Shown here one piece after another: positions 795 to 31,433 of a stretch of DNA of 32,000 nucleotides. Under the pieces are notes generated by a model. The model was not told the DNA's origin. It did not search any database and worked only from the letters and a program-made list of their open reading frames with translations. The DNA is from Microcystis aeruginosa NIES-2549 (lineage in GTDB: Bacteria; Cyanobacteriota; Cyanobacteriia; Cyanobacteriales; Microcystaceae): the NCBI RefSeq assembly GCF_000981785.2, contig NZ_CP011304.1:1290001-1322000 (forward strand). Direction: 5' to 3'. Numbering within the stretch: the first letter of the stretch is position 1; each line of letters opens with the position of its first letter. The position numbers and the translations under genes are program-made.

Positions 795-1013
795 TTAATT
801 GTGCTGCTGTCTTTGTAATTGCTCGATAGTTGCGGGGGATAAATCGGTAAATCGGGCGATTTCTGGGATAGGAAAACCAGCAGATAGCATTTTTAGGGCA
901 ATTTGTCGAGCTTTTTCTTCTTTACCCGCTTGCAATCCTTTTTGTAGTCCCTTTTCCTCGCCTTCCTCTCTGCCTTCCTCTAAAATATCTTGATAGATGA
1001 CGGATTCTCTCAT
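795..1013 (-). CDS. Free-standing copy (orphan A, 72 aa) of the Rpn-like C-terminal module: E/K/G-rich linker plus helix-turn-helix-like ..ARQIALKMLSAGFPIPEIARFTDLSP..
   Basis: Track ORF. ATG (rc of 1011..1013) lies 7 nt downstream of GGAG (rc of 1021..1024). The same ~40-nt linker+SD is found inside genes 1036..1827 and 2091..2870. Confidence 0.6.
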   Translation of the reverse strand: MRESVIYQDILEEGREEGEEKGLQKGLQAGKEEKARQIALKMLSAGFPIPEIARFTDLSPATIEQLQRQQHN

Positions 1014-1035
1014 AATGTCACTCCGAAGGATTTTT

Positions 1036-1239
1036 TTAATCGTCTCTCGATTGTAATTCCTCGATAGTTGCGGGGGATAAATCGGTAAATCGGGCGATTT
1101 CTGGGATAGAAAAGCCAGCAGATAGCATTTTTAGGGCAATTTGTCGAGCTTTTTCTTCTTTACCCGCTTGCAAGCCTTTTTTTAGTCCTTTTTCCTCGCC
1201 TTCCTCTAAAATATCTTGATAGATGACGGATTCTCTCAT
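1036..1239 (-). CDS. Putative nested in-frame small ORF (67 aa) equal to the C-terminal module of copy 1
   Basis: Internal ATG (rc 1237..1239) lies 7 nt downstream of GGAG (rc 1247..1250). The identical context precedes the free-standing orphan modules. Confidence 0.3.
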   Translation of the reverse strand: MRESVIYQDILEEGEEKGLKKGLQAGKEEKARQIALKMLSAGFSIPEIARFTDLSPATIEELQSRDD

Positions 1240-1827
1240 AATGTCACTCCGAAGGATTTTTTTAATCGTCTCTCGATTTAATACTAACCCGGCGAGAATA
1301 CTGGTAGCGGCAGCGAGATTGCTTTGCACCTGTTTTTCGGGGATAGTTTCTAAAGAACGGGACACCTGACTTAACACCTGTTCGGGGTCATCGGTATTGC
1401 TGAGGATGGCAAAGGGTAATAAACCGGGATGATGAAAAAATTGTGGTGTATTTTCTTCCCAAAGACGGATGACTTGAAAGGAATGAAAGGTTTCCCCCAG
1501 ACGGAAAGTATTTTCTTGCACTAGGGGGGAATCACTGCGTCGCAGATAAATTACCACTTGACGCATTTGTTTTTGGGGATGACGACGATAGACGCGAATG
1601 CGATAATCGAGCATTCGGAAGGGAATTTTGGAGTCGGGGTCGGTTTGAAACTCGGTATGGAGAATCAATTCCTCTGACTGCAAAAAAATCAGGGAATCGG
1701 CACGAATGGGGTCTAATTGTAATTCCGTCGGGTCGAGGACGGTTAAGGGGAGGGGAGAACCCAATAACCAAGTGGCTAGATCATCGGAGAAGTTTTCGGC
1801 GATAAATTTACAAATATTATCAAACAT
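1036..1827 (-). CDS. Rpn-family (YhgA/Transposase_31-like, PD-(D/E)XK) putative recombination-promoting nuclease, copy 1
   Basis: 263 aa from ATG 1827, equivalent to the start of copy 2. The track's extra 21 aa up to 1890 overlap orphan B and have no counterpart in copy 2. It carries the nuclease-core-like ..RADSLIFLQSEELILHTEFQTD.. and a C-terminal HTH-like module. Confidence 0.8.
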   Translation of the reverse strand: MFDNICKFIAENFSDDLATWLLGSPLPLTVLDPTELQLDPIRADSLIFLQSEELILHTEFQTDPDSKIPFRMLDYRIRVYRRHPQKQMRQVVIYLRRSDSPLVQENTFRLGETFHSFQVIRLWEENTPQFFHHPGLLPFAILSNTDDPEQVLSQVSRSLETIPEKQVQSNLAAATSILAGLVLNRETIKKILRSDIMRESVIYQDILEEGEEKGLKKGLQAGKEEKARQIALKMLSAGFSIPEIARFTDLSPATIEELQSRDD

Positions 1828-2068
1828 CGTGAGCGTTTTGTCTTTGTAATTCCTCGATAGTTGCGGGGGATAAATCGGTAAATCGGGCAATTTCTGGGAT
1901 AGAAAAGCCAGCAGATAGCATTTTTAGGGCAATTTGTCGGGCTTTTTCTTCTTTACCTTCTTGTCGTCCTTCTTGCAGTCCTTCTTGTCGTCCTTCTTGT
2001 CGTCCTTTTTCCTCGCCTTCCTCTCTGCCTTCCTCTAAAATATCTTGATAGATGACGGATTCTCTCAT
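1820..2068 (-). CDS. Free-standing copy (orphan B, 82 aa) of the Rpn-like C-terminal module with an expanded (R/L)QEG linker
   Basis: Track ORF. ATG (rc 2066..2068) is preceded by GGAG (rc 2076..2079). Its stop overlaps the ATG of copy 1 by 8 nt. Confidence 0.6.
   Translation of the reverse strand: MRESVIYQDILEEGREEGEEKGRQEGRQEGLQEGRQEGKEEKARQIALKMLSAGFSIPEIARFTDLSPATIEELQRQNAHDV
1956..2003 (-). repeat. 4 x 12-nt tandem repeat (ccttcttgtcgt / ccttcttgcagt) encoding (R/L)QEG x4 inside orphan B
   Basis: Read directly: 1956..1967, 1968..1979, 1980..1991, 1992..2003. Confidence 0.9.
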
Positions 2069-2090
2069 AATGTCACTCCGAAGAATATTT

Positions 2091-2282
2091 TTAATCGTCT
2101 CTCGATTGTAATTCCTCGATCGCGTCGGGGGATAAATCGGTAAATCGGGCGATTTCTGGGATAGAAAAGCCAGCAGATAGCATTTTCAGGGCAATTTGTC
2201 GAGCTTTTTCTTCTTTACCTTTTTGTAGTCCCTTTTCCTCGCCTTCCTCTAAAATATCTTGATAGATGACGGATTCTCTCAT
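2091..2282 (-). CDS. Putative nested in-frame small ORF (63 aa) equal to the C-terminal module of copy 2
   Basis: Internal ATG (rc 2280..2282) is preceded by GGAG (rc 2290..2293). Confidence 0.3.
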   Translation of the reverse strand: MRESVIYQDILEEGEEKGLQKGKEEKARQIALKMLSAGFSIPEIARFTDLSPDAIEELQSRDD

Positions 2283-2870
2283 AATGTCACTCCGAAGGAT
2301 TTTTTTAATCGTCTCTCGATTTAATACTAACCCGGCGAGAATACTGGTAGCGGCAGCGAGATTGCTTTGCACCTGTTTTTCGGGGATAGTTTCTAAAGAA
2401 CGGGACACCTGACTTAACACCTGTTCGGGGTCATCGGTATTGCTGAGGATGGCAAAGGGTAATAAACCGGGATGATGAAAAAATTGTGGTGTATTTTCTT
2501 CCCAAAGACGGATGACTTGAAAGGAATGAAAGGTTTCCCCCAGACGGAAAGTATTTTCTTGCACTAGGGGGGAATCACTGCGTCGCAGATAAATTACCAC
2601 TTGACGCATTTGTTTTTGGGGATGACGACGATAGACGCGAATGCGATAATCGAGCATTCGGAAGGGAATTTTGGAGTCGGGGTCGGTTTGAAACTCGGTA
2701 TGGAGAATCAATTCCTCTGACTGCAAAAAAATCAGGGAATCGGCACGAATGGGGTCTAATTGTAATTCCGTCGGGTCGAGGACGGTTAAGGGGAGGGGAG
2801 AACCCAATAACCAAGTGGCTAGATCATCGGAGAAGTTTTCGGCGATAAATTTACAAATATTATCAAACAT
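2091..2870 (-). CDS. Rpn-family (YhgA/Transposase_31-like, PD-(D/E)XK) putative recombination-promoting nuclease, copy 2
   Basis: 259-aa track ORF. The N-terminal ~205 aa are identical to copy 1. It differs only in the C-terminal module (GLQKGKEEK vs GLKKGLQAGKEEK; SPDAIE vs SPATIE). Confidence 0.85.
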   Translation of the reverse strand: MFDNICKFIAENFSDDLATWLLGSPLPLTVLDPTELQLDPIRADSLIFLQSEELILHTEFQTDPDSKIPFRMLDYRIRVYRRHPQKQMRQVVIYLRRSDSPLVQENTFRLGETFHSFQVIRLWEENTPQFFHHPGLLPFAILSNTDDPEQVLSQVSRSLETIPEKQVQSNLAAATSILAGLVLNRETIKKILRSDIMRESVIYQDILEEGEEKGLQKGKEEKARQIALKMLSAGFSIPEIARFTDLSPDAIEELQSRDD

Positions 2871-3053
2871 TGTCAGGGATTACTTTCCGTTTCTCCTAGG
2901 ATACCCTCGGTCGCCGGTGTTGACATCCTGTATTCGCCGTAACTGTTGCCGAAGAGAATCGTAGCGCAGAATACATTATAGACAAAATTCAACTTTAATT
3001 ATGGACTAATTGTATAAATATCGGCAAATTTGTCACATATTCCCAGAAATTTC

Positions 3054-3083
3054 TTGACAATTGCTAGAGGAAGGGAGTAGATT
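3054..3083 (+). promoter_or_regulatory. Candidate sigma70-type promoter for the PEP-CTERM gene
   Basis: TTGACA at 3054..3059, an 18-nt spacer, TAGATT at 3078..3083, about 27 nt upstream of ATG 3111. Based on sequence pattern only. Confidence 0.3.
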
Positions 3084-3110
3084 ACAATCACATCAATTTT
3101 ATGAAGCTTT

Positions 3111-3833
3111 ATGTCATTAGAAAAACTTATCAACCATGGGGGGGGGGAGAAGCATAGCTTATCAAAGGCTCTGCTCAAATCCTTTTCCCTAGCCACGGTT
3201 TTTACCACTACCCTTGTGCTGAGTTCGGTATCTTCCGCCGAAGCTTTCACTACTTTCACTAATCGCACCGCTTGGCAAGCTGCCGTCGATGCCATCGCTG
3301 GCAGTGTCACCACCACCGATACTTTTACCAACAACATCGCCTCTGCTCAAACAATAACACTGGATTCGGGCATCGTTTCGGCGAATTCCTTTCCACCCGC
3401 AGTTGCGTATGGGGATAATAGCGTTGGTGGAGGACTTTTCAACAATGCCACTGATGGAGATGCGAGTGGTGCTTCCGCAACTATCACTTGGACTTTTCCC
3501 TCACCTGTGTTTGCCTTCGGAGCGGATTTTAAAGGTACTGCGGCTGGCGGGCTAAACCTAACGGGAAATTTCGATGGTACAGGAAACCAAACTCTGCTTG
3601 TGAATGACAGTATCGGCGGACCAGACGGCTTTCTGGGCATTATTGGTAACGCAAACTTTAGCTCGATCGTCTTTGGGAATAATACAACTTTCTTCGATTC
3701 CTTCCAGATCGATAGCGCTTCTTTTGCCTCTGTTGCCTCTGTTCCCGTCGCAGTTCCTGAACCTGGTATGATCACAGGATTGGTGTTCTTAGGTGGTGGT
3801 TTAGTGGTGCGTCGCCTCGCTAAACGTCGTTAA
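3111..3833 (+). CDS. PEP-CTERM sorting-domain secreted protein
   Basis: Signal-peptide-like KALLKSFSLATVFTTTLVLSSVSSAEA, a G/T/N/S/A/F-rich body, and a C-terminal VPEPGMITGLVFLGGGLVVRRLAKRR (PEP motif, TM span, basic tail). Confidence 0.85.
   Translation: MSLEKLINHGGGEKHSLSKALLKSFSLATVFTTTLVLSSVSSAEAFTTFTNRTAWQAAVDAIAGSVTTTDTFTNNIASAQTITLDSGIVSANSFPPAVAYGDNSVGGGLFNNATDGDASGASATITWTFPSPVFAFGADFKGTAAGGLNLTGNFDGTGNQTLLVNDSIGGPDGFLGIIGNANFSSIVFGNNTTFFDSFQIDSASFASVASVPVAVPEPGMITGLVFLGGGLVVRRLAKRR
3138..3147 (+). repeat. Homopolymeric G10 tract inside codons 10-13 of the PEP-CTERM gene
   Basis: Counted directly: ccatGGGGGGGGGGagaag. Confidence 0.9.
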
Positions 3834-3841
3834 TCGCGCTT

Positions 3842-3890
3842 GGGGTGGGGAGATGAGCCAAATTTTGCCAATTCCCCACCCTTTGCAGTT
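3842..3890 (+). terminator. Candidate terminator hairpin after the PEP-CTERM gene
   Basis: GGGTGGGGA (3843..3851) pairs perfectly with TCCCCACCC (3873..3881) and is followed by TTTGCAGTT. The loop is long (21 nt), so this is tentative. Confidence 0.35.
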
Positions 3891-3897
3891 AAAAGCT

Positions 3898-4098
3898 TTA
3901 ATTGCGCTGCTGTCTTTGTAATTGCTCGATTGCGTCGGGGGATAAATCGGTAAATCGGGCAATTTCTGGGATAGAAAAGCCAGCAGATAGCATTTTTAGG
4001 GCAATTTGTCGAGCTTTTTCCTCTTTGCCTTCCTCTTTGCCTTCCTCTAAAGCTTCTTGATAGACTTTAGTTTCCCTTAAATCACTTAAACTAAACAT
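3898..4098 (-). CDS. Free-standing C-terminal module (orphan C, 66 aa from ATG 4098): MFSLSDLRETKVYQEALEEGKEEGKEEKARQIALKMLSAGFSIPEIARFTDLSPDAIEQLQRQQRN
   Basis: ATG (rc 4096..4098) lies 9 nt downstream of AAGGAG (rc 4108..4113). The frame is open upstream to 4216 but without an ATG. The track ORF 3898..4131 starts at a TTG that is a Leu codon in the homologous gene. Confidence 0.5.
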   Translation of the reverse strand: MFSLSDLRETKVYQEALEEGKEEGKEEKARQIALKMLSAGFSIPEIARFTDLSPDAIEQLQRQQRN

Positions 4099-4216
4099 TT
4101 TTTCAATCTCCTTACGGTTTAATTTGGGCAATTTATAAATGAGAATTGTCTCGATTAATTCCAGAATGTCCTCTCTTTTTAAAGACTCCTGAAATTGTTG
4201 CTTAAATTGTTGAATC
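4040..4216 (-). repeat. 177-bp segment about 97% identical to 4406..4582 inside gene 4231..5052
   Basis: My manual alignment gives a constant offset of 366, 5 mismatches and no indels. Homology stops exactly at the ..EALEEG | C-terminal-module boundary. Confidence 0.9.
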
Positions 4217-4230
4217 TAAGGCTTTTTTCT

Positions 4231-4464
4231 TTAATTTAACCATTGCCGCAAATCTTCTAAATCCGAAAACCCCAACAACGCAAGAGCTAAATTATCCAGT
4301 TGATTAGGATTTAATTGTTTAATTTTTTGTTCTACCTTTAAAGGAATAGAACCGAGTTTTAAGTTTAGCTGACGCAAAATTAGGCTTTTTTTAGCGGATA
4401 ATTCTCCTTCCTCCAAAGCTTCTTGATAGACTTTAGTTTCTCTTAAATCACTTAAACTAAACAT
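4231..4464 (-). CDS. Putative nested in-frame small ORF (77 aa) equal to the C-terminal module of gene 4231..5052
   Basis: Internal ATG (rc 4462..4464) lies 9 nt downstream of a perfect AAGGAG (rc 4474..4479). Confidence 0.3.
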   Translation of the reverse strand: MFSLSDLRETKVYQEALEEGELSAKKSLILRQLNLKLGSIPLKVEQKIKQLNPNQLDNLALALLGFSDLEDLRQWLN

Positions 4465-5052
4465 TTTTTCAATCTCCTTACGGTTTAATTTGGGCAATTT
4501 ATAAATGAGAATTGTCTCGATTAATTCCAGAATGTCCTCTCTTTTTAAAGACTCCTGAAATTGTTGTCTAACTTGTTGAATCAGTTCTTTTCCTTGAGCT
4601 AAGGTATTTTGTTCCGATTCCACAATTAATTGTAACACTTTTACCCCCAGAGAATCCCCCTCATCTAACTGATTCAGATAATAACAGTTAACCCGGCCTG
4701 ACTCAAAGAATTCTTGATAACGAGATTTGGGACTATTTTCAATTTCCCGATGGGGATAAATGATCACCCCTTGCCAATTGTTCTTACTCTCACTTTGATG
4801 AAAATAGAGAAATATTTCACTAAAAAAGCGCGAGTAAAACCGTTCATCTTTTTGAAATTGTACCTCAACAAAGTAAATCGGATCATTGAGGTTATCGGGA
4901 AGAAAAACCCCATCTAAACGAAAAGCGAGTTGTTTAACTTCTAGGGAGGAAAATTGATAATGATTGACGGTTTCTGGGGGAAGATTGAGCAAATCAAAGA
5001 AACTTTCAGGAAAAGTCTCAAAGAGACGATAGAAAATACTGTCCGTTTTCAC
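4231..5052 (-). CDS. Rpn-family PD-(D/E)XK putative nuclease paralogue (MKTDSIFYRLF.. type) with a DUF4351-like C-terminus
   Basis: 273-aa track ORF with ..RLDGVFLPDNLNDPIYFVEVQFQKD.. as a nuclease-core-like motif. The C-terminus ..LILRQLNLKLGSIPLKVEQKIKQLNPNQLDNLALALLGFSDLEDLRQWLN resembles DUF4351. Confidence 0.8.
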   Translation of the reverse strand: MKTDSIFYRLFETFPESFFDLLNLPPETVNHYQFSSLEVKQLAFRLDGVFLPDNLNDPIYFVEVQFQKDERFYSRFFSEIFLYFHQSESKNNWQGVIIYPHREIENSPKSRYQEFFESGRVNCYYLNQLDEGDSLGVKVLQLIVESEQNTLAQGKELIQQVRQQFQESLKREDILELIETILIYKLPKLNRKEIEKMFSLSDLRETKVYQEALEEGELSAKKSLILRQLNLKLGSIPLKVEQKIKQLNPNQLDNLALALLGFSDLEDLRQWLN

Positions 5053-5099
5053 TCAATTTTGTCCCTCATTGACTTGTGGTACTTGTTCAATTTCTCAGT

Positions 5100-5203
5100 C
5101 TAAAGCTTGGGGATAGGAAAGCCAGCAGATAGCATTTTTAGGGCAATTTGTCGAGATTTCTCTTCTTTGCCCTTTTCCTCTCCTTTCTCTAAAATGTCTC
5201 GAT
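5100..5203 (-). pseudogene. Truncated remnant of the HTH-like module, abutting the dapB stop
   Basis: My translation is ..DILEKGEEKGKEEKSRQIALKMLSAGFPIPKL*. It lacks both a start and the distal half of the module. Confidence 0.6.
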
Positions 5204-6034
5204 TTAGAGGATTTTTTCTAAACCGTAAACGAGGGATTGCAGCTGAGTAACTTTGCGGATAGAAAGGAGAACCCCCGGCATATAACAGGAGCGATCGCTG
5301 GTATCGTGACGAAGGGTATAGATTTCTCCAGGAGAACCGAAAATGACTTCCTGGTGAGCAATTAAACCGGGTAAACGCACGCTATGAATACGGATGTTCT
5401 CAGCAGTTAAACCGCCTCTAGCACCGGGGATGGTTTCTTTTTCGGAAACTTGGGCAGGATTAAAGGTTTTACCTAATTCGGCCAGTAATTCGGCGGTTTT
5501 AATGGCTGTGCCACTGGGTGCGTCTGCTTTTTGATTGTGATGCAGTTCGATAATTTCCACATGATCAAAGTAGCGGGATGCTTGCACGGCAGCCTGTTGT
5601 AGTAAAACCATGCCAATGGAAAAATTGGGGATAACTAAACAGCCAGTGCTGGCTTTTTCGGCAAATTCGGCTAAATCTTGCAGTTGTGCCGCCGATAATC
5701 CCGTAGTTCCCACCACGGGACGCACTCCATAGGCGATCGCACTGCGGGTATTGTCATAAACACCGTCGGGATGGGTAAAATCCACCATTACCCCCTGCAC
5801 TTTTTCCTGAGTTGCCAGGACTAAAACACTCTGTAAATCGTCGAGAATCGGCACTTCTAGGGGTTCACAACCGGCCACTTCCCCCACATCCTGACCTCGA
5901 AAAGCTGGATTTCGATCGACTGCACCCACTAAGATCATATCGTCGGCACGAGCAACGGCTTTAATAACTTCCCGTCCCATTTTGCCGGCTGCACCGTTGA
6001 CAACTACGGGAATCGGGCCTCTATTTTCGGTCAT
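5204..6034 (-). CDS. dapB: 4-hydroxy-tetrahydrodipicolinate reductase
   Basis: The N-terminus [14 protein letters not shown] is a Rossmann motif, followed by ..[15 protein letters not shown].. (the DapB signature). AAGGAG lies upstream of the ATG. Confidence 0.95.
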
Positions 6035-13460: not shown

Positions 13461-14573
13461 ATGGAAAAAGCCTATTCTTACCGATTTTACCCCACACCCG
13501 AACAAGAGTCGCTATTGCGGCGCACTTTGGGCTGTGTAAGATTAGTTTACAACAAAGCTCTCCACGAACGAACACAAGCTTGGTACGAAAAGCAAGAAAG
13601 AGTAGGCTACGCTCAAACTTCTTCAATGCTAACCGATTGGAAAAAACAAGAAGAATTAGAGTTTTTAAACGAAGTTAGCTGTGTACCCTTACAACAAGGG
13701 TTAAGACATTTACAAACAGCTTTCACTAATTTCTTTGCTGGTCGTACTAAGTATCCTAACTTTAAGAAAAAACATCAGGGAGGAAGTGCCGAATTTACCA
13801 AGTCTGCTTTTAAATTTAAAGACAGACAAATCTATTTAGCTAAATGCACAGAACCTTTACCTATTCGATGGTCAAGACAAATCCCAGAAAGCTGTGAACC
13901 AAGCACAGTAACAGTCAGATTACATCCCTCTGGACGCTGGCATATTTCAATAAGATTTGATGACCCAACGATTAAGCCTTTACCAGTAACAGATAAAGCC
14001 ATTGGAATTGACTTAGGAATTAGTAGCCTAGTAATTACCAGCGATGGCGATAAAGTATCTAATCCCAAGCATTTTAAGAAACATTATCAGAGGTTGCGAA
14101 GAGCATCGAAAAGCCTTTCTAGAAAACAGAAAGGGTCAAAAAATCGAGAAAAGGCAAAAATCAAAGTAGCCAGAATTCACGCTCAAATCACCGATAGTAG
14201 AAAAGACCATCTACATAAGCTAACCACTCAATTAGTTCGTGAAAACCAAACGATTGTGGTTGAGAATTTAGCCGTCAAGAATATGGTCAAAAACCCGAAA
14301 TTATCTCAGGCAATATCTGATGTAAGCTGGGGTGAAATCACTAGACAATTAGCCTATAAATGCCGTTGGTATGGGAGAAATTACATCGAAATAGATAGAT
14401 GGTTTCCTAGCTCTAAAAGGTGTAGTAATTGCGGGTATATTGCTGAGAAAATGCCGTTAAATGTTCGAGAATGGGACTGTCCAGACTGTGGGACACACCA
14501 TGACCGAGATATTAACGCAAGTAAAAATATTTTGGCCGCAGGGCTTGCGGTGTCAGTCTGTAGAGCGACCTGA
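13461..14573 (+). CDS. tnpB: TnpB (OrfB) RNA-guided endonuclease-type transposon protein
   Basis: MEKAYSYRFYPTPEQ.. N-terminus. The split RuvC triad is IGIDLGI / VVVENL / HDRDINASKNI, with a zinc ribbon CSNCGY..CPDCGTHH. Confidence 0.95.
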   Translation: MEKAYSYRFYPTPEQESLLRRTLGCVRLVYNKALHERTQAWYEKQERVGYAQTSSMLTDWKKQEELEFLNEVSCVPLQQGLRHLQTAFTNFFAGRTKYPNFKKKHQGGSAEFTKSAFKFKDRQIYLAKCTEPLPIRWSRQIPESCEPSTVTVRLHPSGRWHISIRFDDPTIKPLPVTDKAIGIDLGISSLVITSDGDKVSNPKHFKKHYQRLRRASKSLSRKQKGSKNREKAKIKVARIHAQITDSRKDHLHKLTTQLVRENQTIVVENLAVKNMVKNPKLSQAISDVSWGEITRQLAYKCRWYGRNYIEIDRWFPSSKRCSNCGYIAEKMPLNVREWDCPDCGTHHDRDINASKNILAAGLAVSVCRAT

Positions 14574-17491: not shown

Positions 17492-18424
17492 ATGGCATTT
17501 AACGTTACAAAACAGCGTAATTTTTGGTGGACAGTCTCGGCCTTGCTGACGATTGGTAGTATTTTGGCCATGGTAATTTCTTGGTTCACTATTCAAGCGC
17601 CTTTACGACCGAGTTTAGATTTTGTTGGTGGCACGAGAATTCAGATAGAATTAGCCTGTGCCAAAAAGAATACCTGTGAGAAACCCTTAACTACTGCCGA
17701 AGTGCAAGCAATTTTAGAAGAGGAAGGATTGGGTAACAGTAGTGTGCAGGTGTTGGATAAATATACTTTATCGGTGCGGACTAAAACCCTAGCAGAAGAA
17801 CAGAGAACAAAATTACTCGACACCTTAAATCAGAAAATTGGCACCTTTGACCCCGAAACCGGTCAAATCGATACCGTCGGGCCCACCATCGGTCAAGAAT
17901 TATTTAGGTCGGGATTTTTAGCTTTATTAGTGTCATTTTTTGGCATTGCCGTCTATCTCAGCTTCCGTTTTCAACGGGATTACGCTTTTTTTGCCATTGT
18001 CGCCCTGCTGCACGACGTTTTGATCACTTTAGGGGTCTTTGCGGTTTTAGGCTTAATTGCGGGGGTAGAAGTGGATAGTTTATTTTTGGTTTCCCTCTTG
18101 ACAATTGTGGGCTTTTCTGTTAACGACACAGTGGTAATTTATGATCGCGTCCGGGAAAATTTTGCTAATACCCCCGAATTATCCGTGGATGAAATTGTCG
18201 ATAATGCGGTGAGTCAAACCCTAACTCGTTCAATTAATACCACCCTGACCACTTTATTGCCTCTGGTGGCGATTTTTCTCTTTGGTGGCACCACCTTAAA
18301 ATATTTTGCCCTAGCTTTAATTATTGGCTTTGTAGCCGGGGCCTATTCGAGTATTTTTATCGCTAGTACCCTACTAGCTTGGTGGCGCGGTCGTTCCCAT
18401 CGACCCACACTCAATTACAGTTAG
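17492..18424 (+). CDS. secF: Protein translocase subunit SecF
   Basis: ..[10 protein letters not shown].. and ..[20 protein letters not shown].. are SecF motifs. Confidence 0.95.
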
Positions 18425-18744
18425 GATGCCATTGGTGAAGAATCAGTCGGTCTTGGATAGGTCGTAATAGTAATTTCAACCTGTTGATTGAGACTACCCA
18501 AAATTGAGATCAAACGGTCAATAGTAAAGCGTCCCAAATTAGCACGGCGAATCTGAACAAATTCACTGTGATTAATTCCAGTTCGCACTTGAGCATCGCG
18601 GGTTGATAAGTCTTCCTTCTCCAGAACCTTGATAATTTCAGCAGCAAGCAGTGCTTTCGCTTGTCGCACGTCCGCATCCACATCGCCAAAATCGCGGTAC
18701 ACATTCCCGCTACCTTGTACCAGTTCAAATTGTTCTTCACTCAT
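18421..18744 (-). CDS. XRE-family helix-turn-helix antitoxin (HigA-like)
   Basis: ..[37 protein letters not shown].. is an HTH. Its ATG overlaps the upstream toxin stop (ATGA at 18741..18744). Confidence 0.75.
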
Positions 18745-19085
18745 GAGAGTTCCTCCTTCAATCGCTTGAGCCGTGCTTTGATAACTTCGACTTCTTGCTG
18801 TGGTGTTTTGATCCCTTTTGGGGATTTTTTCTGGAAGGCATGAATCACCCAGATAGCCTCACCTAACTGGACAGCATAAATAGTTCGATAGGCATCCCCC
18901 TTGAAAGGTAGAGCAATCTCGAACACACCAGAACCTATCCCCTTAAAAGGCTTGGTTAGGGATGATTTTGCCCCTTCTGCTGCAATAGTTAAAGCGTCAA
19001 GTACAATTTCTTGGGCTTCCTTGGGAAACTTTTGAAAATCTTTCCGTGCCGCTTTAATCCAAGATATAGGACGGGTATTACGCAT
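18741..19085 (-). CDS. RelE/HigB-superfamily toxin of the phage Gp49-like (DUF891) type
   Basis: 114 aa from ATG 19085: MRNTRPISWIKAARKDFQKFPKEAQ..FEIALPFKGDAYRTIYAVQLGEAIWVIHAFQKKS.. The toxin-first order is typical of HigBA. The track's longer start at 19157 is less likely. Confidence 0.7.
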   Translation of the reverse strand: MRNTRPISWIKAARKDFQKFPKEAQEIVLDALTIAAEGAKSSLTKPFKGIGSGVFEIALPFKGDAYRTIYAVQLGEAIWVIHAFQKKSPKGIKTPQQEVEVIKARLKRLKEELS

Positions 19086-19165
19086 TCGCTTATGGTGATA
19101 TAACTGATACCACCTGTCAAGCCCCATTATACCTGTTGAAGGTTTTGCTTGTGTCAATCAAAGCG

Positions 19166-23778: not shown

Positions 23779-23813
23779 CGTCGCTTAATTATCTTATAAC
23801 CTCGGGAATTTTA

Positions 23814-23935
23814 GGGAGATGGGGAAGTGGGAAGTATTTTCAGTGAACAGTAAACAGTAATCAGTGAACTGAACTCTGATAACTGATAACTGATAACTGA
23901 TAACTGATAACTGATAACTGATAACTGATAACTGA
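23814..23935 (+). repeat. Composite element: G-rich block (gggagatggggaagtgggaagt), CAGTGAACAG..CAGTGAAC core, and (CTGATAA)x8 (23876..23931)
   Basis: Counted directly. It lies in the divergent region between the ABC ATPase and radical-SAM genes. Confidence 0.9.
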
Positions 23936-23997
23936 CTCGATTCTGGCTGCTATAGTAGAAAAGCACCCATTGCTGACGATATCTGAGGTAGATTGCC

Positions 23998-26568
23998 GTG
24001 ACTATTGCTTTAGACCAACTGCTCACCCCCGACATTTTTCGACCAGCGCGTTATTTGGGCAACGAGTTAGGCGCTAAACATAAAGAATGGGCAAGTGCTG
24101 TGGTTCGTTGGGTGTTAACCTATCCGGAAGTGTACGAAGTGGGGGCATCTAACCTCGGTCATATTATCCTCTACAATATCCTCAATGCTCAACCCCGCCA
24201 ACTCTGCGATCGCACTTATCTACCCGCACCGGATTTAGCCCAAAAACTCAAACAGACAAAAACCCCCCTATTTGCCCTAGAATCCCGTCGTTACCTCACC
24301 GATTTTGATATTCTCGGTTTTAGTCTTAGTTACGAGCTAGGAGCAACCAATATTTTAGAAATGCTCGACCTAGCGGCAATTCCCTTGACTTGGAGAGAAA
24401 GAGATGCGGGTAACTATCCGCTAATTTTTGCCGGGGGACAAACTGCCACCTCTAACCCCGAACCCTATGCCGACTTTTTTGATTTTATCGCCCTTGGTGA
24501 TGGCGAAGAATTATTGCCAGAAATCGGTTTAATTTTAGAAGAAGGTAAACTAGCTAATCTAAGCAAAGAAGAACTATTACTAGATTTAGCCCAAATTCCG
24601 GGGGTATATGTCCCCCGTTTCTACGATGTCACCCCAATCGGTGCAGTTATCCCCAATCGTGACGATGTACCGAAAAGAATTTTACGCCGGGTAGCTACTC
24701 CTATCCCAGCCTATTCTATCGGTTTAGTTCCCTTCGTGGAAACGGTTCACGATCGCCTGGTGGTGGAAATTCGTCGCGGTTGCACTCGGGGATGTCGTTT
24801 TTGTCAACCGGGGATGTTAACCCGTCCCGCGCGGGATGTGCAACCGGAAGCAGTAATCGAATCGATTGAAAAAGGAATGCGAGCGACAGGATATAACGAA
24901 TTTTCTTTATTATCTCTCAGTTGCTCCGATTATCTAGCTTTACCTGCCGTGGGTATGGAGATTAAAAACCGTCTCCAGAATGAGAATATATCTCTATCCT
25001 TACCCAGTCAAAGAGTCGATCGCTTTGACGAAAATATTGCTAACATAATTGGGGGCAATCGTCAATCGGGTTTAACCTTTGCACCGGAAGCGGGAACCCA
25101 ACGAATGCGCGATGTAATTAACAAAGGGTTAACCAACGAAGAATTACTCAGAGGGATAAAAACTGCTGTCGAACAGGGTTGGGATAAGGTCAAACTCTAT
25201 TTTATGATCGGTTTGCCGGGGGAAACCGATGTGGATGTGATTGGTATCGTGGAAACGGTGCGCTGGTTGCGTCGGGAATGTCGTTTACCGAAGCGGAAAC
25301 CCCTCGATTTTACCCTAACTATCTCCAATTTTACCCCTAAACCCCATACCCCCTTCCAGTGGCATTCCGTCTCCACGGCCGAATTTATCCGCAAACAGGA
25401 GTTATTAAGACAGGAATTTCAAGGCATGAGAGGGGTAAAAGTCAATTATACCGATGTCCGTATCTCGGCTATGGAAGATTTTATCGGTCGCGGTGACAGA
25501 AGTTTAGGGAAAGTGGTGCTGCGCGCTTGGCAATTGGGAGCCGGGATGGATGCTTGGTGGGATAATACAGAAAAAGCCTATCAAGCATGGTCACAGGCGA
25601 TCGAAGAATCCGGTTTAACTTGGAAATATCGTCAGGTAGAACAGGGAGAATGGAATATTTTTGCCGATGCAGACAAAGATATTTTAGAGCGTCCTTTGCC
25701 CTGGGATCATCTGGATACCGGTATCGATAAAAAATGGCTAGAGGAGGACTTAAAACGCGCCCTAGACGCGGCAACGGTCCCCGATTGTTCTTTTGAGGGT
25801 TGTTCCCATTGTGGCGTTTGTAGCGTCGATTTTGGTCATAATATCGTCATTGAAGCGCCCCCGATTCCCGCTTTTGCTGGACATTTTCAACCCAATCAAG
25901 AACGCGCCCAAAGAATTCGGGTTTGGTTTGGCAAAATTGGCGAAATAGCCCTAGTTAGCCACTTGGATCTGGTGCGTTTATTTGATCGCGTCGTCCGTCG
26001 GGCTGCTATTCCTATTTCCTTTACCGGTGGATTTCACCCCGGTCCGCGCATTTCGATCGCTAATGCTTTATCCTTGGGAGCAACCAGTAGCGGTGAGATT
26101 GTCGATTTTGAATTGACAAAAGTAATCGATTTAGAGACTTTTAAACAGCAGTTAAGCGGGCAATTACCCGCAGATTTGCCGGTTTATCAGGTGGAAGAAA
26201 TTCCCTTAAATGCCCCCGCTGCCACCCGTTTGTTGGAAAAAGCCGAGTATTTGCTCACTTTTAATAGTGAGGGAATTGATAGCCAACAGTGGCAAAATTG
26301 GCTCGAGGCAATTAAGCAAGCAACGGTGATGGAACGAGAAAAAACCACCAAATCTGGCAAAAAAGTCACGATTAATCTGCGAGAACAATTATATGAATTA
26401 GAGTTAAAAACTGTTGACAAACAAGCCGTTTTGTGCTATGTGGGCAGTTGTCGCAATGATGGCACTTTACTACAGCCTGATCATATCGTCGAGATGTTAG
26501 AAAGGGTCTCCGGGCAGGAAATTTCGCTGCTTAATTGCCATCGTCAGCGCTTGATTTTAGGGACTTAA
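23998..26568 (+). CDS. Radical SAM protein (B12-binding-like N-terminus, TIGR03960-type) fused to a DUF2344/TIGR03936-type C-terminal domain
   Basis: CxxxCxxC in ..RRGCTRGCRFCQPG.. (~24775..24810). The C-terminal ..RIRVWFGKIGEIALVSHLDLVRLFDRVVRRA.. is typical of DUF2344. The start is GTG. Confidence 0.85.
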   Translation: MTIALDQLLTPDIFRPARYLGNELGAKHKEWASAVVRWVLTYPEVYEVGASNLGHIILYNILNAQPRQLCDRTYLPAPDLAQKLKQTKTPLFALESRRYLTDFDILGFSLSYELGATNILEMLDLAAIPLTWRERDAGNYPLIFAGGQTATSNPEPYADFFDFIALGDGEELLPEIGLILEEGKLANLSKEELLLDLAQIPGVYVPRFYDVTPIGAVIPNRDDVPKRILRRVATPIPAYSIGLVPFVETVHDRLVVEIRRGCTRGCRFCQPGMLTRPARDVQPEAVIESIEKGMRATGYNEFSLLSLSCSDYLALPAVGMEIKNRLQNENISLSLPSQRVDRFDENIANIIGGNRQSGLTFAPEAGTQRMRDVINKGLTNEELLRGIKTAVEQGWDKVKLYFMIGLPGETDVDVIGIVETVRWLRRECRLPKRKPLDFTLTISNFTPKPHTPFQWHSVSTAEFIRKQELLRQEFQGMRGVKVNYTDVRISAMEDFIGRGDRSLGKVVLRAWQLGAGMDAWWDNTEKAYQAWSQAIEESGLTWKYRQVEQGEWNIFADADKDILERPLPWDHLDTGIDKKWLEEDLKRALDAATVPDCSFEGCSHCGVCSVDFGHNIVIEAPPIPAFAGHFQPNQERAQRIRVWFGKIGEIALVSHLDLVRLFDRVVRRAAIPISFTGGFHPGPRISIANALSLGATSSGEIVDFELTKVIDLETFKQQLSGQLPADLPVYQVEEIPLNAPAATRLLEKAEYLLTFNSEGIDSQQWQNWLEAIKQATVMEREKTTKSGKKVTINLREQLYELELKTVDKQAVLCYVGSCRNDGTLLQPDHIVEMLERVSGQEISLLNCHRQRLILGT

Positions 26569-30723: not shown

Positions 30724-31125
30724 ATGGAGGAAATCAAAATGCAATGCCCTGAATGTAAATCTACCCATATCCGTAAAAATGGCATCAATAAACAAGGTAA
30801 ACAAAATCATATTTGTGTAACCTGTGGCCGTCAATTTATTAATAACTATGAAAAACAGAAAGGCTATGACGAAAAAACGAAGCGAGAATGCCTAACTGCC
30901 TATGTTAATGGGATGGGATTTAGAGGAATAGAAAGGCTAAAGGGAGTTCATCATACGACCGTAATTAATTGGGTAAAATCTGTGGGAGAATTATTGCCAG
31001 TCGCCTATGACCCAGAAACAATTCCTGAAGTAGGGGAACTGGATGAATTGGAAACCTTTGTTGGCTCAAAAAAAACAAAATCTGGGTGTGGACAGCCGTT
31101 GACCACTTTAAAAAAGGAATTTTAG
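30724..31125 (+). CDS. insA: IS1-family InsA-like protein (zinc finger plus HTH)
   Basis: MQCPECKSTHIRKNG..CVTCGRQF zinc finger, followed by ..GIERLKGVHHTTVINWVK.. HTH. Confidence 0.85.
   Translation: MEEIKMQCPECKSTHIRKNGINKQGKQNHICVTCGRQFINNYEKQKGYDEKTKRECLTAYVNGMGFRGIERLKGVHHTTVINWVKSVGELLPVAYDPETIPEVGELDELETFVGSKKTKSGCGQPLTTLKKEF
31068..31076 (+). other. Programmed -1 ribosomal frameshift motif AAAAAAAAC
   Basis: The A8 run at 31068..31075 lies exactly in the insA/insB' overlap, analogous to the A6C motif of IS1. Confidence 0.7.
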
Positions 31126-31433
31126 GTTGGGTAATCGGAGACCATAGTAGCGAAACGTTTCGCCCATTATGGGAATTAGTTAAGTCTTGGGGATGCTATT
31201 TTTATGTGAGTGATGGATGGTCAGTTTATCCATGTTTTATAGCAGAGGGCGACCATATAATTAGTAAGACTTATATGACCAGAGTAGAGGGTGAGAACAC
31301 ACGTTTAAGACATTATCTAGCCCGATTGCATCGCAAAACACTCTGCTATTCTAAGTCTACAGAAATGTTAGGATACTCTATTCGTTTATTAATTCATTAT
31401 CTGAAGTTTCAAGAAGTGCCTATTCCTTACTGA
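31068..31433 (+). CDS. insB: IS1-family InsB' reading frame (-1 relative to insA); expected to be expressed as an InsAB' fusion transposase of about 237 aa
   Basis: The -1 frame reads KKNKIWVWTAVDHFKKGILGWVIGDHS.. from the A-run onward and has no independent ATG. Confidence 0.8.
   Translation, partial: KKNKIWVWTAVDHFKKGILGWVIGDHSSETFRPLWELVKSWGCYFYVSDGWSVYPCFIAEGDHIISKTYMTRVEGENTRLRHYLARLHRKTLCYSKSTEMLGYSIRLLIHYLKFQEVPIPY

Follow-up and report, generated by a model that had tools for sequence, protein, structure and literature searches.

A putative rpnSs-type small gene behind an Rpn-family nuclease gene in a Microcystis rpn array

A repeated segment at the dapB-adjacent rpn locus

The stretch analysed here, referred to as the window, comprises 32,000 nucleotides (nt) of Microcystis aeruginosa NIES-2549 (NZ_CP011304.1, positions 1,290,001 to 1,322,000). 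The window carries an island of rpn genes on its minus strand, and our subject is the segment 3898-4216, which lies just behind one long Rpn gene and contains a small open reading frame (ORF) (Table 1). In E. coli, rpn genes are toxin-antitoxin or antiphage units in which the nuclease, RpnL, is blocked by RpnS, a small protein made from an in-frame internal start (Zhong et al. 2023, PMC10400941; commentary PMC10400984). Certain rpn loci carry an additional small-protein gene just downstream (rpnSs, e.g., ypaA), which is expressed (PMC10400941). Our data suggest that the segment 3898-4216 is probably a free-standing small gene of the rpnSs type behind a toxin-like Rpn nuclease gene in a Microcystis rpn array.

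We found that the long gene combines a DUF2887 body (PF11103, E 5.6e-78) with a DUF4351 tail (PF14261, E 1.3e-16), and that it scores 72.2 bits against the Rpn family model TIGR01784, for which the cut-off is 52.1. Its close homologues are all from Microcystis and are named Rpn family nuclease. Judged by these profile matches, the long gene is a member of the Rpn family (COG5464/TIGR01784, PD-(D/E)XK) and a predicted nuclease. PADLOC assigned neither the long genes nor the small ORF to any family. Alleles of the long gene with 273, 277, 281, and 294 amino acids (aa) differ by whole four-residue repeats. The internal Met codon of the long gene is ATG in 85 of 85 DUF2887-family genes from many cyanobacterial genera, and a purine motif resembling a Shine-Dalgarno (SD) sequence lies 4-17 nt upstream of this ATG in all 85, even where the encoded residues differ. 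By analogy with E. coli rpn genes, a nested 77-aa protein of the DUF4351 type may also be made from ATG 4464.

Part of the interior of the long gene is present a second time behind its stop codon (TAA, 4233-4231). The two copies, 4406-4582 and 4040-4216, form a direct repeat of 177 nt with 97% identity (5 mismatches, no indels) and a spacing of 366 nt, which is far beyond chance. Identity is lost in the codon for the G of EALEEG. Past this point the long gene runs into ELSAKK..RQWLN and its stop, which is the DUF4351 tail, and the downstream copy runs into KEEGKEEKARQIALKMLSAGFSIPEIARFTDLSP..RQQRN (KEEGKEEKARQIALKMLSAGF..RQQRN) and its stop. The latter tail type is shared with the window's other Rpn genes, and PF27070 HTH_Rpn_C (HTH, helix-turn-helix) is recorded for the identical product in a sister assembly. 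By BLASTP, the two tail classes show weak similarity at most after residue 20. The frame of the downstream copy opens at 4215, right after a TAG at 4218-4216, and is the same frame as in the long gene. The first 105 nt of this copy (4216-4112) are non-coding for the small ORF, while the remaining 72 nt (4111-4040) supply its SD sequence, its ATG, and its first 20 codons. An assembly artefact was considered as the source of this arrangement and rejected, since the same junction is present in many independent assemblies and metagenome contigs.

An earlier note on this DNA, made from the sequence alone, had described the 177-nt repeat with five mismatches and no indels, the end of identity at EALEEG, the DUF4351 and HTH-like tails, and the 14-nt spacing, and all of this is confirmed by repeat search, sequence reading, and the PF14261 match. 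The same note had called the cassette displaced or silent, and silence is not supported; its statement that the copy is devoid of a canonical start is incorrect: GGAG at 4111-4108 is followed after 9 nt by ATG 4098, in the same layout as GGAG 4477-4474 and ATG 4464 of the long gene, the resulting 66-aa ORF is called in the assembly GCA_009811875.1, and its product has a predicted RpnS fold.

Table 1. Features of the rpn island; positions are those of the window.
Feature	Position	Strand	Description
Long Rpn gene (RpnL-type)	4231..5052	-	273 aa, GTG start; DUF2887 nuclease-family body and DUF4351 tail
Predicted nested small ORF (RpnS-type)	4231..4464	-	77 aa; internal ATG 4464, GGAG 4477-4474; sequence reading
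Repeat copy 1	4406..4582	-	Interior of long gene; encodes ..IQQVRQQFQESL..KMFSLSDLRETKVYQEALEEG; repeat search
Spacer AGAAAAAAGCCTTA	4217..4230	-	14 nt, from long-gene stop to repeat copy 2; junction conserved in other Microcystis strains
Repeat copy 2	4040..4216	-	177 nt, 5 mismatches to copy 1
Free-standing small ORF (rpnSs-like)	3898..4098	-	66 aa: MFSLSDLRETKVYQEALEEG-KEEG-KEEK-ARQIALKMLSAGFSIPEIARFTDLSPDAIEQLQRQQRN
GC-rich hairpin (GGGTGGGGA..TCCCCACCC)	3843..3881		Between small ORF and convergent PEP-CTERM-like gene; minimum free energy -25.6 kcal/mol, z -3.3
Two fused older tail-cassette remnants	5053..5203	-	Between dapB (stop 5204) and GTG 5052
Second-type Rpn gene	2091..2870	-	259 aa, HTH tail; TIGR01784 114 bits
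Third Rpn gene	1036..1827	-	263 aa from ATG 1827; copy from 1043-nt tandem duplication of 2091-2870
Downstream small ORF	1820..2068	-	82 aa: MRESVIYQDILEEG, 7 repeat units, HTH tail; SD GGAG 7 nt before ATG
Terminal small ORF, ATG-started	795..1013	-	72 aa; tail and 3' flank 93% identical to 3860-4029

The small ORF and its predicted product

The 66-aa product is predicted by a gene caller in GCA_009811875.1, a near-identical Microcystis assembly, as PF27070 HTH_Rpn_C, and the identical protein is present in NIES-3807 and NIES-2549. The PF27070 assignment was taken from precomputed annotations; our own Pfam scan of the tail returned only generic HTH families below threshold. The ORF matches RpnA-S (PDB 7TH0) by phmmer (E 1.2e-3). 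Its AlphaFold (AF2) model has a predicted local distance difference test (pLDDT) score of 71, and a Foldseek search of 350,542 chains with this model placed 7TH0 at the top (prob 0.99, template modelling (TM) score 0.77, root mean square deviation 1.7 Å, 39% identity). The 66-aa ORF is thereby predicted to have the three-helix, HTH-like fold of RpnA-S. In the small Rpn proteins, hypervariable four-residue repeats set in 8-20 residues past the initiating Met (PMC10400941); the EEG-KEEG-KEEK tract of the 66-aa ORF, which starts 17-21 residues past its Met, agrees with this placement.

We found that the 66-aa protein has many relatives of its own kind. A search with it returned 247 matches and, among the 120 matches listed, essentially all are stand-alone Microcystis proteins of 59-114 aa assigned to PF27070 HTH_Rpn_C. 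Similar stand-alone small proteins in this size range form more than 100 clusters in Microcystis. Many stand-alone homologues start with MFSLSDLRETKVYQEALEEG, and their lengths of 66, 70, 72, 76, and 80 aa lie whole four-residue repeats apart.

A consensus scan of 3750-5250 for promoters and terminators gave no more hits than shuffled sequence and none between the long gene and the small ORF. On this basis a promoter belonging to the small ORF is not supported, and co-transcription with the long gene is assumed. The hairpin that follows the small ORF is a possible terminator, and it is duplicated along with the tail at 757-926. The gene convergent with the small ORF ends in ..GGLVVRRLAKRR and is PEP-CTERM-like by reading, with no Pfam match. 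The stretches 651-926 and 3755-4029 are duplicates of each other at 84-93% identity and take in the HTH tail and the hairpin spacer along with the 3' end of this convergent gene.

We propose the following scheme. The long gene would encode a nuclease of the RpnL type from the PD-(D/E)XK family and, by analogy with E. coli, a nested RpnS from ATG 4464. The small ORF, being 14 nt away with no promoter or terminator predicted in between, would most likely be co-transcribed with the long gene up to the strong hairpin that lies after it, and its own SD sequence and ATG 4098 would direct synthesis of a 66-aa protein with an RpnA-S-like helical/HTH fold and a variable helix of four-residue repeats. 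The segment may have originated by recombination in a tandem rpn array in which 3' modules are exchanged at the EEG/repeat junction. The small protein might bind an RpnL with an HTH_Rpn_C tail, which would not necessarily be the adjacent DUF4351-tailed RpnL, and act there as an antitoxin-like or regulatory partner. We consider antitoxin-like action of the 66-aa protein and its alternative, a recently refreshed relic, to be about evenly balanced. We infer both the expression of the small ORF and the order of these events.

Related loci and the origin of the downstream copy

Module maps of Microcystis loci revealed that one nuclease body (above 93% nt identity; 85-98% protein identity) is joined to three tail classes after EALEEG and a variable number of four-residue units. 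These are the DUF4351 tail, the HTH_Rpn_C tail, and a third tail, here tail c (ELSAKLNSIPRL..QVIEGQN). At the same dapB-adjacent locus in other strains the body is fused to the HTH tail (related loci L006 and L013; other related loci are numbered likewise). A second body type (MFDNICKF..) carries the HTH tail, and its linker occurs in small cassettes as well, joined there to the third tail. The junction consisting of the DUF4351 tail, the conserved spacer, and the 177-nt copy recurs across Microcystis. Tail swapping together with repeat-mediated recombination in this family is supported by these comparisons.

All downstream copies share derived bases near both of their ends, T at repeat position 11 and G at position 142, which indicates one old origin of these copies. 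Apart from these boundary markers, the copy in the window equals its own gene, private variants included. In L002 and L009, by contrast, the orthologous copies reach no more than about 80-88% identity with any in-gene copy. The window's copy has the boundary markers of the orthologous copies, yet in its interior it is the same as its own gene, so that it has probably been re-homogenised with the long gene by gene conversion. The window and the near-identical locus L001 differ by 4 single-nucleotide polymorphisms (SNPs) in 3.86 kilobases; 2 of these fall in the in-gene repeat (4528 and 4441), and at each of them the gene agrees with the downstream copy in one of the two strains.

The small ORF persists in several related loci. 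In M. wesenbergii (L009) the junction is present and the small ORF is intact, and L087 and L090 contain an intact form of 72 aa. On a MAFFT alignment of the L009 copy with the gene consensus, 31 of 103 positions differ in the 5' non-ORF part, including a stop, vs. 4 of 75 in the part spanning the SD sequence and the ORF (p 2e-5). The copy in L103 looks similar by inspection, with a decayed 5' part and an intact ORF. Partial downstream copies are also present behind other DUF2887 paralogues in Microcystis, Prochloron, Nostoc, and a Microcystaceae metagenome-assembled genome; these copies start at the SD/ATG or up to a few dozen codons upstream of it, and their repeat number differs. The pattern in L009 and L103 suggests that the small ORF is under selection in certain lineages and dispensable in others.

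Several observations weigh against a functional rpnSs-type gene at 3898-4216. The small ORF and the adjacent long gene have only 20 residues in common and differ in tail class, and the downstream protein is not most similar to the upstream gene's own RpnS, as would be expected of an rpnSs product. No HTH-tailed long gene of the window matches the small ORF in repeat number. In E. coli, the four-residue repeat tract in the first RpnS helix sets specificity, and a mismatch of one repeat abolishes neutralisation (PMC10400941); given this and the mismatched repeat numbers, a cognate partner, if any, would lie outside the window. The small ORF is dispensable, since it is broken or deleted in many strains: it is broken by a TAA in L002 and L003, which have a 190-nt element with inverted ends inside the spacer, and likewise in L104; the copy is cut down to a startless tail in NIES-4325 (L010) and almost wholly deleted at two places in CP046973.1; and in 18 metagenome contigs with the junction the copy is intact in about 6, broken in 1, and deleted in about 10. 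A fold search with the nested DUF4351-type protein returned only noise, with no PDB match. The SNPs at 4528 and 4441 could be assembly errors within the repeat.

These losses raise the question of whether the segment is an inert scar, left where unequal crossing-over or a deletion had hit a tandem rpn array, in which the intact ORF and the 97% identity would reflect nothing but recent gene conversion. The earlier note had held that decay of the downstream copy in related genomes, together with a lack of recombinant reads, would reduce the arrangement to such a scar; decay was indeed found in L002, L003, and L104, although not in others. A scar also agrees with the broken or deleted copies in many strains, with the lack in the window of a long gene of matching repeat number, and with the other obvious remnants in the island at 5053-5203. 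It is harder to reconcile with L009, in which the sequence 5' of the SD has decayed and the SD and ORF are conserved (L103 being alike by inspection), with intact variants of other whole-repeat numbers (72 aa) and dozens of stand-alone clusters, or with the independently formed downstream copies in other paralogues, which begin just upstream of the SD. Furthermore, YpaA, the E. coli counterpart, is synthesised (PMC10400941). We regard an inert scar as quite unlikely.

A different origin had been proposed in the earlier note, namely that the HTH module is the gene's own former C-terminus, displaced by an incoming DUF4351 module at the 177-nt/EEG junction and kept silent and restorable in the manner of contact-dependent growth inhibition (CDI) and Rhs loci. 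The part of this proposal that concerns C-terminal replacement by recombination is supported, in that tail classes swap on one body and the repeats do exchange sequence; displacement of the gene's own former tail is not shown. The structure of the locus is compatible with displacement, as are the alleles of L006 and L013, and a comparable partial displacement of tail c is seen in L007, L008, and L011, where the DUF4351 tail is directly followed by the last 83 nt of tail c. The cassette, however, has its own SD sequence and ATG and falls within a large group of intact small genes that stand alone, and its variable module is antitoxin-like rather than a toxin, without an immunity partner. L011, which agrees with the window in its dapB flank and its remnant boundaries, contains a full second paralogue with an HTH tail at the place of the orphan, and L007 contains the same two genes in the same order with a different left flank. 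Given this two-gene state, and since head-to-tail rpn arrays with zero spacing are common, we favour an origin by truncation of a neighbour: the orphan is most probably the 3' remnant of a neighbouring HTH-tailed paralogue, left when the second body was deleted.

The fate of the repeat in other strains also argues against displacement. A deletion allele lacking 366 nt, predicted from the repeat, was found in none of about 35 related loci, nor did we find among related loci the recombinant with loss of 4217-4405 that had been anticipated; the deletions observed remove the downstream copy instead. The idea that the repeat permits reversal or deletion holds for deletion, which is all that direct repeats allow, so any 'reversal' would be one-way. 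Displacement of the gene's own tail is therefore unlikely in our view. A further candidate, a precursor junction (spacer ..GCCTTAG and then tail c ..GATTAAG..) from which a deletion at GATT microhomology would have turned the two-gene state into the orphan, was rejected: this junction is absent among 104 loci, and the idea amounts to a resemblance of 7-10 nt.

Some related loci hold additional elements near the copy. An element of about 190 nt resembling a miniature inverted-repeat transposable element, with terminal inverted repeats AAGGCTCTTCG..CGAAGAGCCTT, lies in the 14-nt spacer at 5838-6030 of L002 and also in L003 and L104. On the metagenome contig L099 (4214-4774) the spacer junction occurs twice in tandem; the leader of the first downstream copy is decayed, and its small ORF, which has six REEG repeats and a DUF4351 tail, stays open until the contig cuts it off. 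Arrays thus also contain stand-alone cassettes of the DUF4351 class. At 1200-1900 of L004 (CP046973.1), an intact 66-aa small ORF adjoins a DDE transposase gene; homology to the Rpn copy begins 9 nt before its ATG, and the SD sequence is replaced by unrelated sequence.

Within the island, the first remnant at 5053-5203 is an HTH tail truncated at ..FPIPKL and a stop, and the second is the last approximately 59 nt of the third tail class (..EIEQVPQVNEGQN and a stop), abutting GTG 5052. Since both cassettes are intact at the same locus in L006, this site has a history of cassette turnover. The long genes at 2091-2870 and 1036-1827 each end at a frameshifted tandem-duplication junction, where ..IEELQ is followed by SRDD and a stop and the tail is joined to the linker TCGAGAGACGATTAAAAAAATCC; this junction recurs in other strains. 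With ATGTTTGA, the end of the 82-aa ORF reaches into the start of the next Rpn gene. Across 795-5052, the HTH-tailed long genes contain 3 and 4 four-residue units after the first EEG and the DUF4351-tailed gene contains none, while the small tail ORFs contain 2, 7, and 5 units from the first EEG to KEEK, none of which equals any HTH-tailed long gene.

Elsewhere in the window, an IS605-family OrfB/TnpB gene with OrfB_IS605, Cas12f1-like TNB, and HTH_OrfB_IS605 domains lies at 13461-14573 (+), and an IS1-type element at 30724-31433 (+) consists of two ORFs whose frames overlap, one an InsA-like zinc-ribbon ORF and the other DDE_Tnp_IS1. At 18421-19157 (-), a Gp49-like (HigB-type) ORF adjoins an HTH_37 ORF and forms a probable toxin-antitoxin pair with it. 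The translation SYQLSVISYQLSVISYQLS of a minus-strand ORF at 23811-24035 suggests a 21-nt tandem repeat just upstream of a large gene starting at 23998.

Rpn genes occur widely as toxin-antitoxin or antiphage elements, and it is their variable C-terminal module that holds their specificity. This locus and its relatives provide a natural series of states (full tandem paralogue, orphan, orphan with decayed leader, broken orphan, and deleted orphan), and this series, together with three tails on one body, documents the creation, exchange, and loss of modules in a bloom-forming cyanobacterium. A small RpnS-like protein with a tail unlike its neighbour's bears on the specificity of pairing between RpnS and RpnL. 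A literature search for work on Rpn in Microcystis found nothing specific. As a speculation that we hold to be rather improbable as a whole, Microcystis rpn arrays might be cassette-shuffling systems in which at least two nuclease bodies and three classes of RpnS 3' modules recombine at a dodecamer-repeat (EEG) junction, perhaps helped by the nucleases themselves; former or alternative modules would be kept as expressed orphan small genes whose repeat numbers mismatch nearby long genes, and these would form a layer of cross-regulation or decoys, or else a stock from which toxin-antitoxin specificity could be switched.

Comparison with known systems

Orphan modules of CDI (cdiA-CT/cdiI) and Rhs loci resemble the segment in that a variable 3' module lies behind a conserved junction, leftover modules form arrays downstream, and the homology that the 5' end of the orphan has with the main gene (177 nt, 97%) could mediate recombination. 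However, the variable module here is antitoxin-like or regulatory, by its homology to RpnA-S, and not a toxin, and no ORF that might be an immunity gene is present between the module and the hairpin and convergent gene. Orphans of CDI and Rhs loci lack initiation signals and depend on recombination for their expression, whereas the small ORF has its own SD sequence and ATG. The genes here would encode small cytoplasmic nucleases rather than secreted polymorphic toxins, and they contain no VENN or PxxxxDPxGL motif. The RpnL/RpnS/rpnSs framework thus fits the locus better than the CDI/Rhs framework in which the earlier note had placed it.

RpnS can also be encoded as a separate gene (PMC10400941), and stand-alone DUF4351 and HTH_Rpn_C genes of 59-114 aa, which consist of the Rpn C-terminal module only, are abundant in Microcystis. 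The 66-aa gene is alike in content. It differs from such genes in being coupled to a long gene of another tail class, with 177 nt in common with the interior of that gene.

The closest likeness is to rpnE-ypaA and rpnC-rpnCSs of E. coli. There, too, a small ORF begins a few nt past the stop of the rpn gene: ypaA of K-12 begins 12 nt after the rpnE stop, compared with the 14-nt spacer before the copy here. The K-12 pair shares a 72-nt repeat of 97% identity that runs from AAGGAG to the QEG repeat junction and is followed by a 12-nt indel and 84% identity, a drop at the junction that the window shows too. At both loci, a repeat of about 97% identity takes in the SD sequence, the internal start, and the first helix and stops at the junction of the four-residue repeats, repeat numbers differ between copies, and a partial duplication that includes the ribosome-binding site and start yields a separate small ORF. 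The product is RpnA-S-like in fold (predicted here), and loss is a further likeness, E. coli rpnSs genes disappearing through deletion or through fusion to the N-terminal domain (PMC10400941). The ypaA gene itself (L105, 5620-5981) is annotated as a pseudogene in RefSeq, although its protein is reported to be made (PMC10400941).

The two systems also differ. The Microcystis repeat reaches 118 nt upstream of the ATG and is 177 nt in length vs. 72 nt. The downstream proteins of E. coli group with the RpnS of their own upstream gene, whereas here an HTH_Rpn_C tail stands behind a DUF4351 tail. The Microcystis long gene belongs to the cyanobacterial DUF2887 subfamily, which is known from sequence alone. 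Overall, the arrangement is of a known kind, an rpnSs gene behind an rpn gene, and not a new system; what sets it apart is its heterologous tail, along with the rich evidence of shuffled modules and gene conversion in Microcystis.

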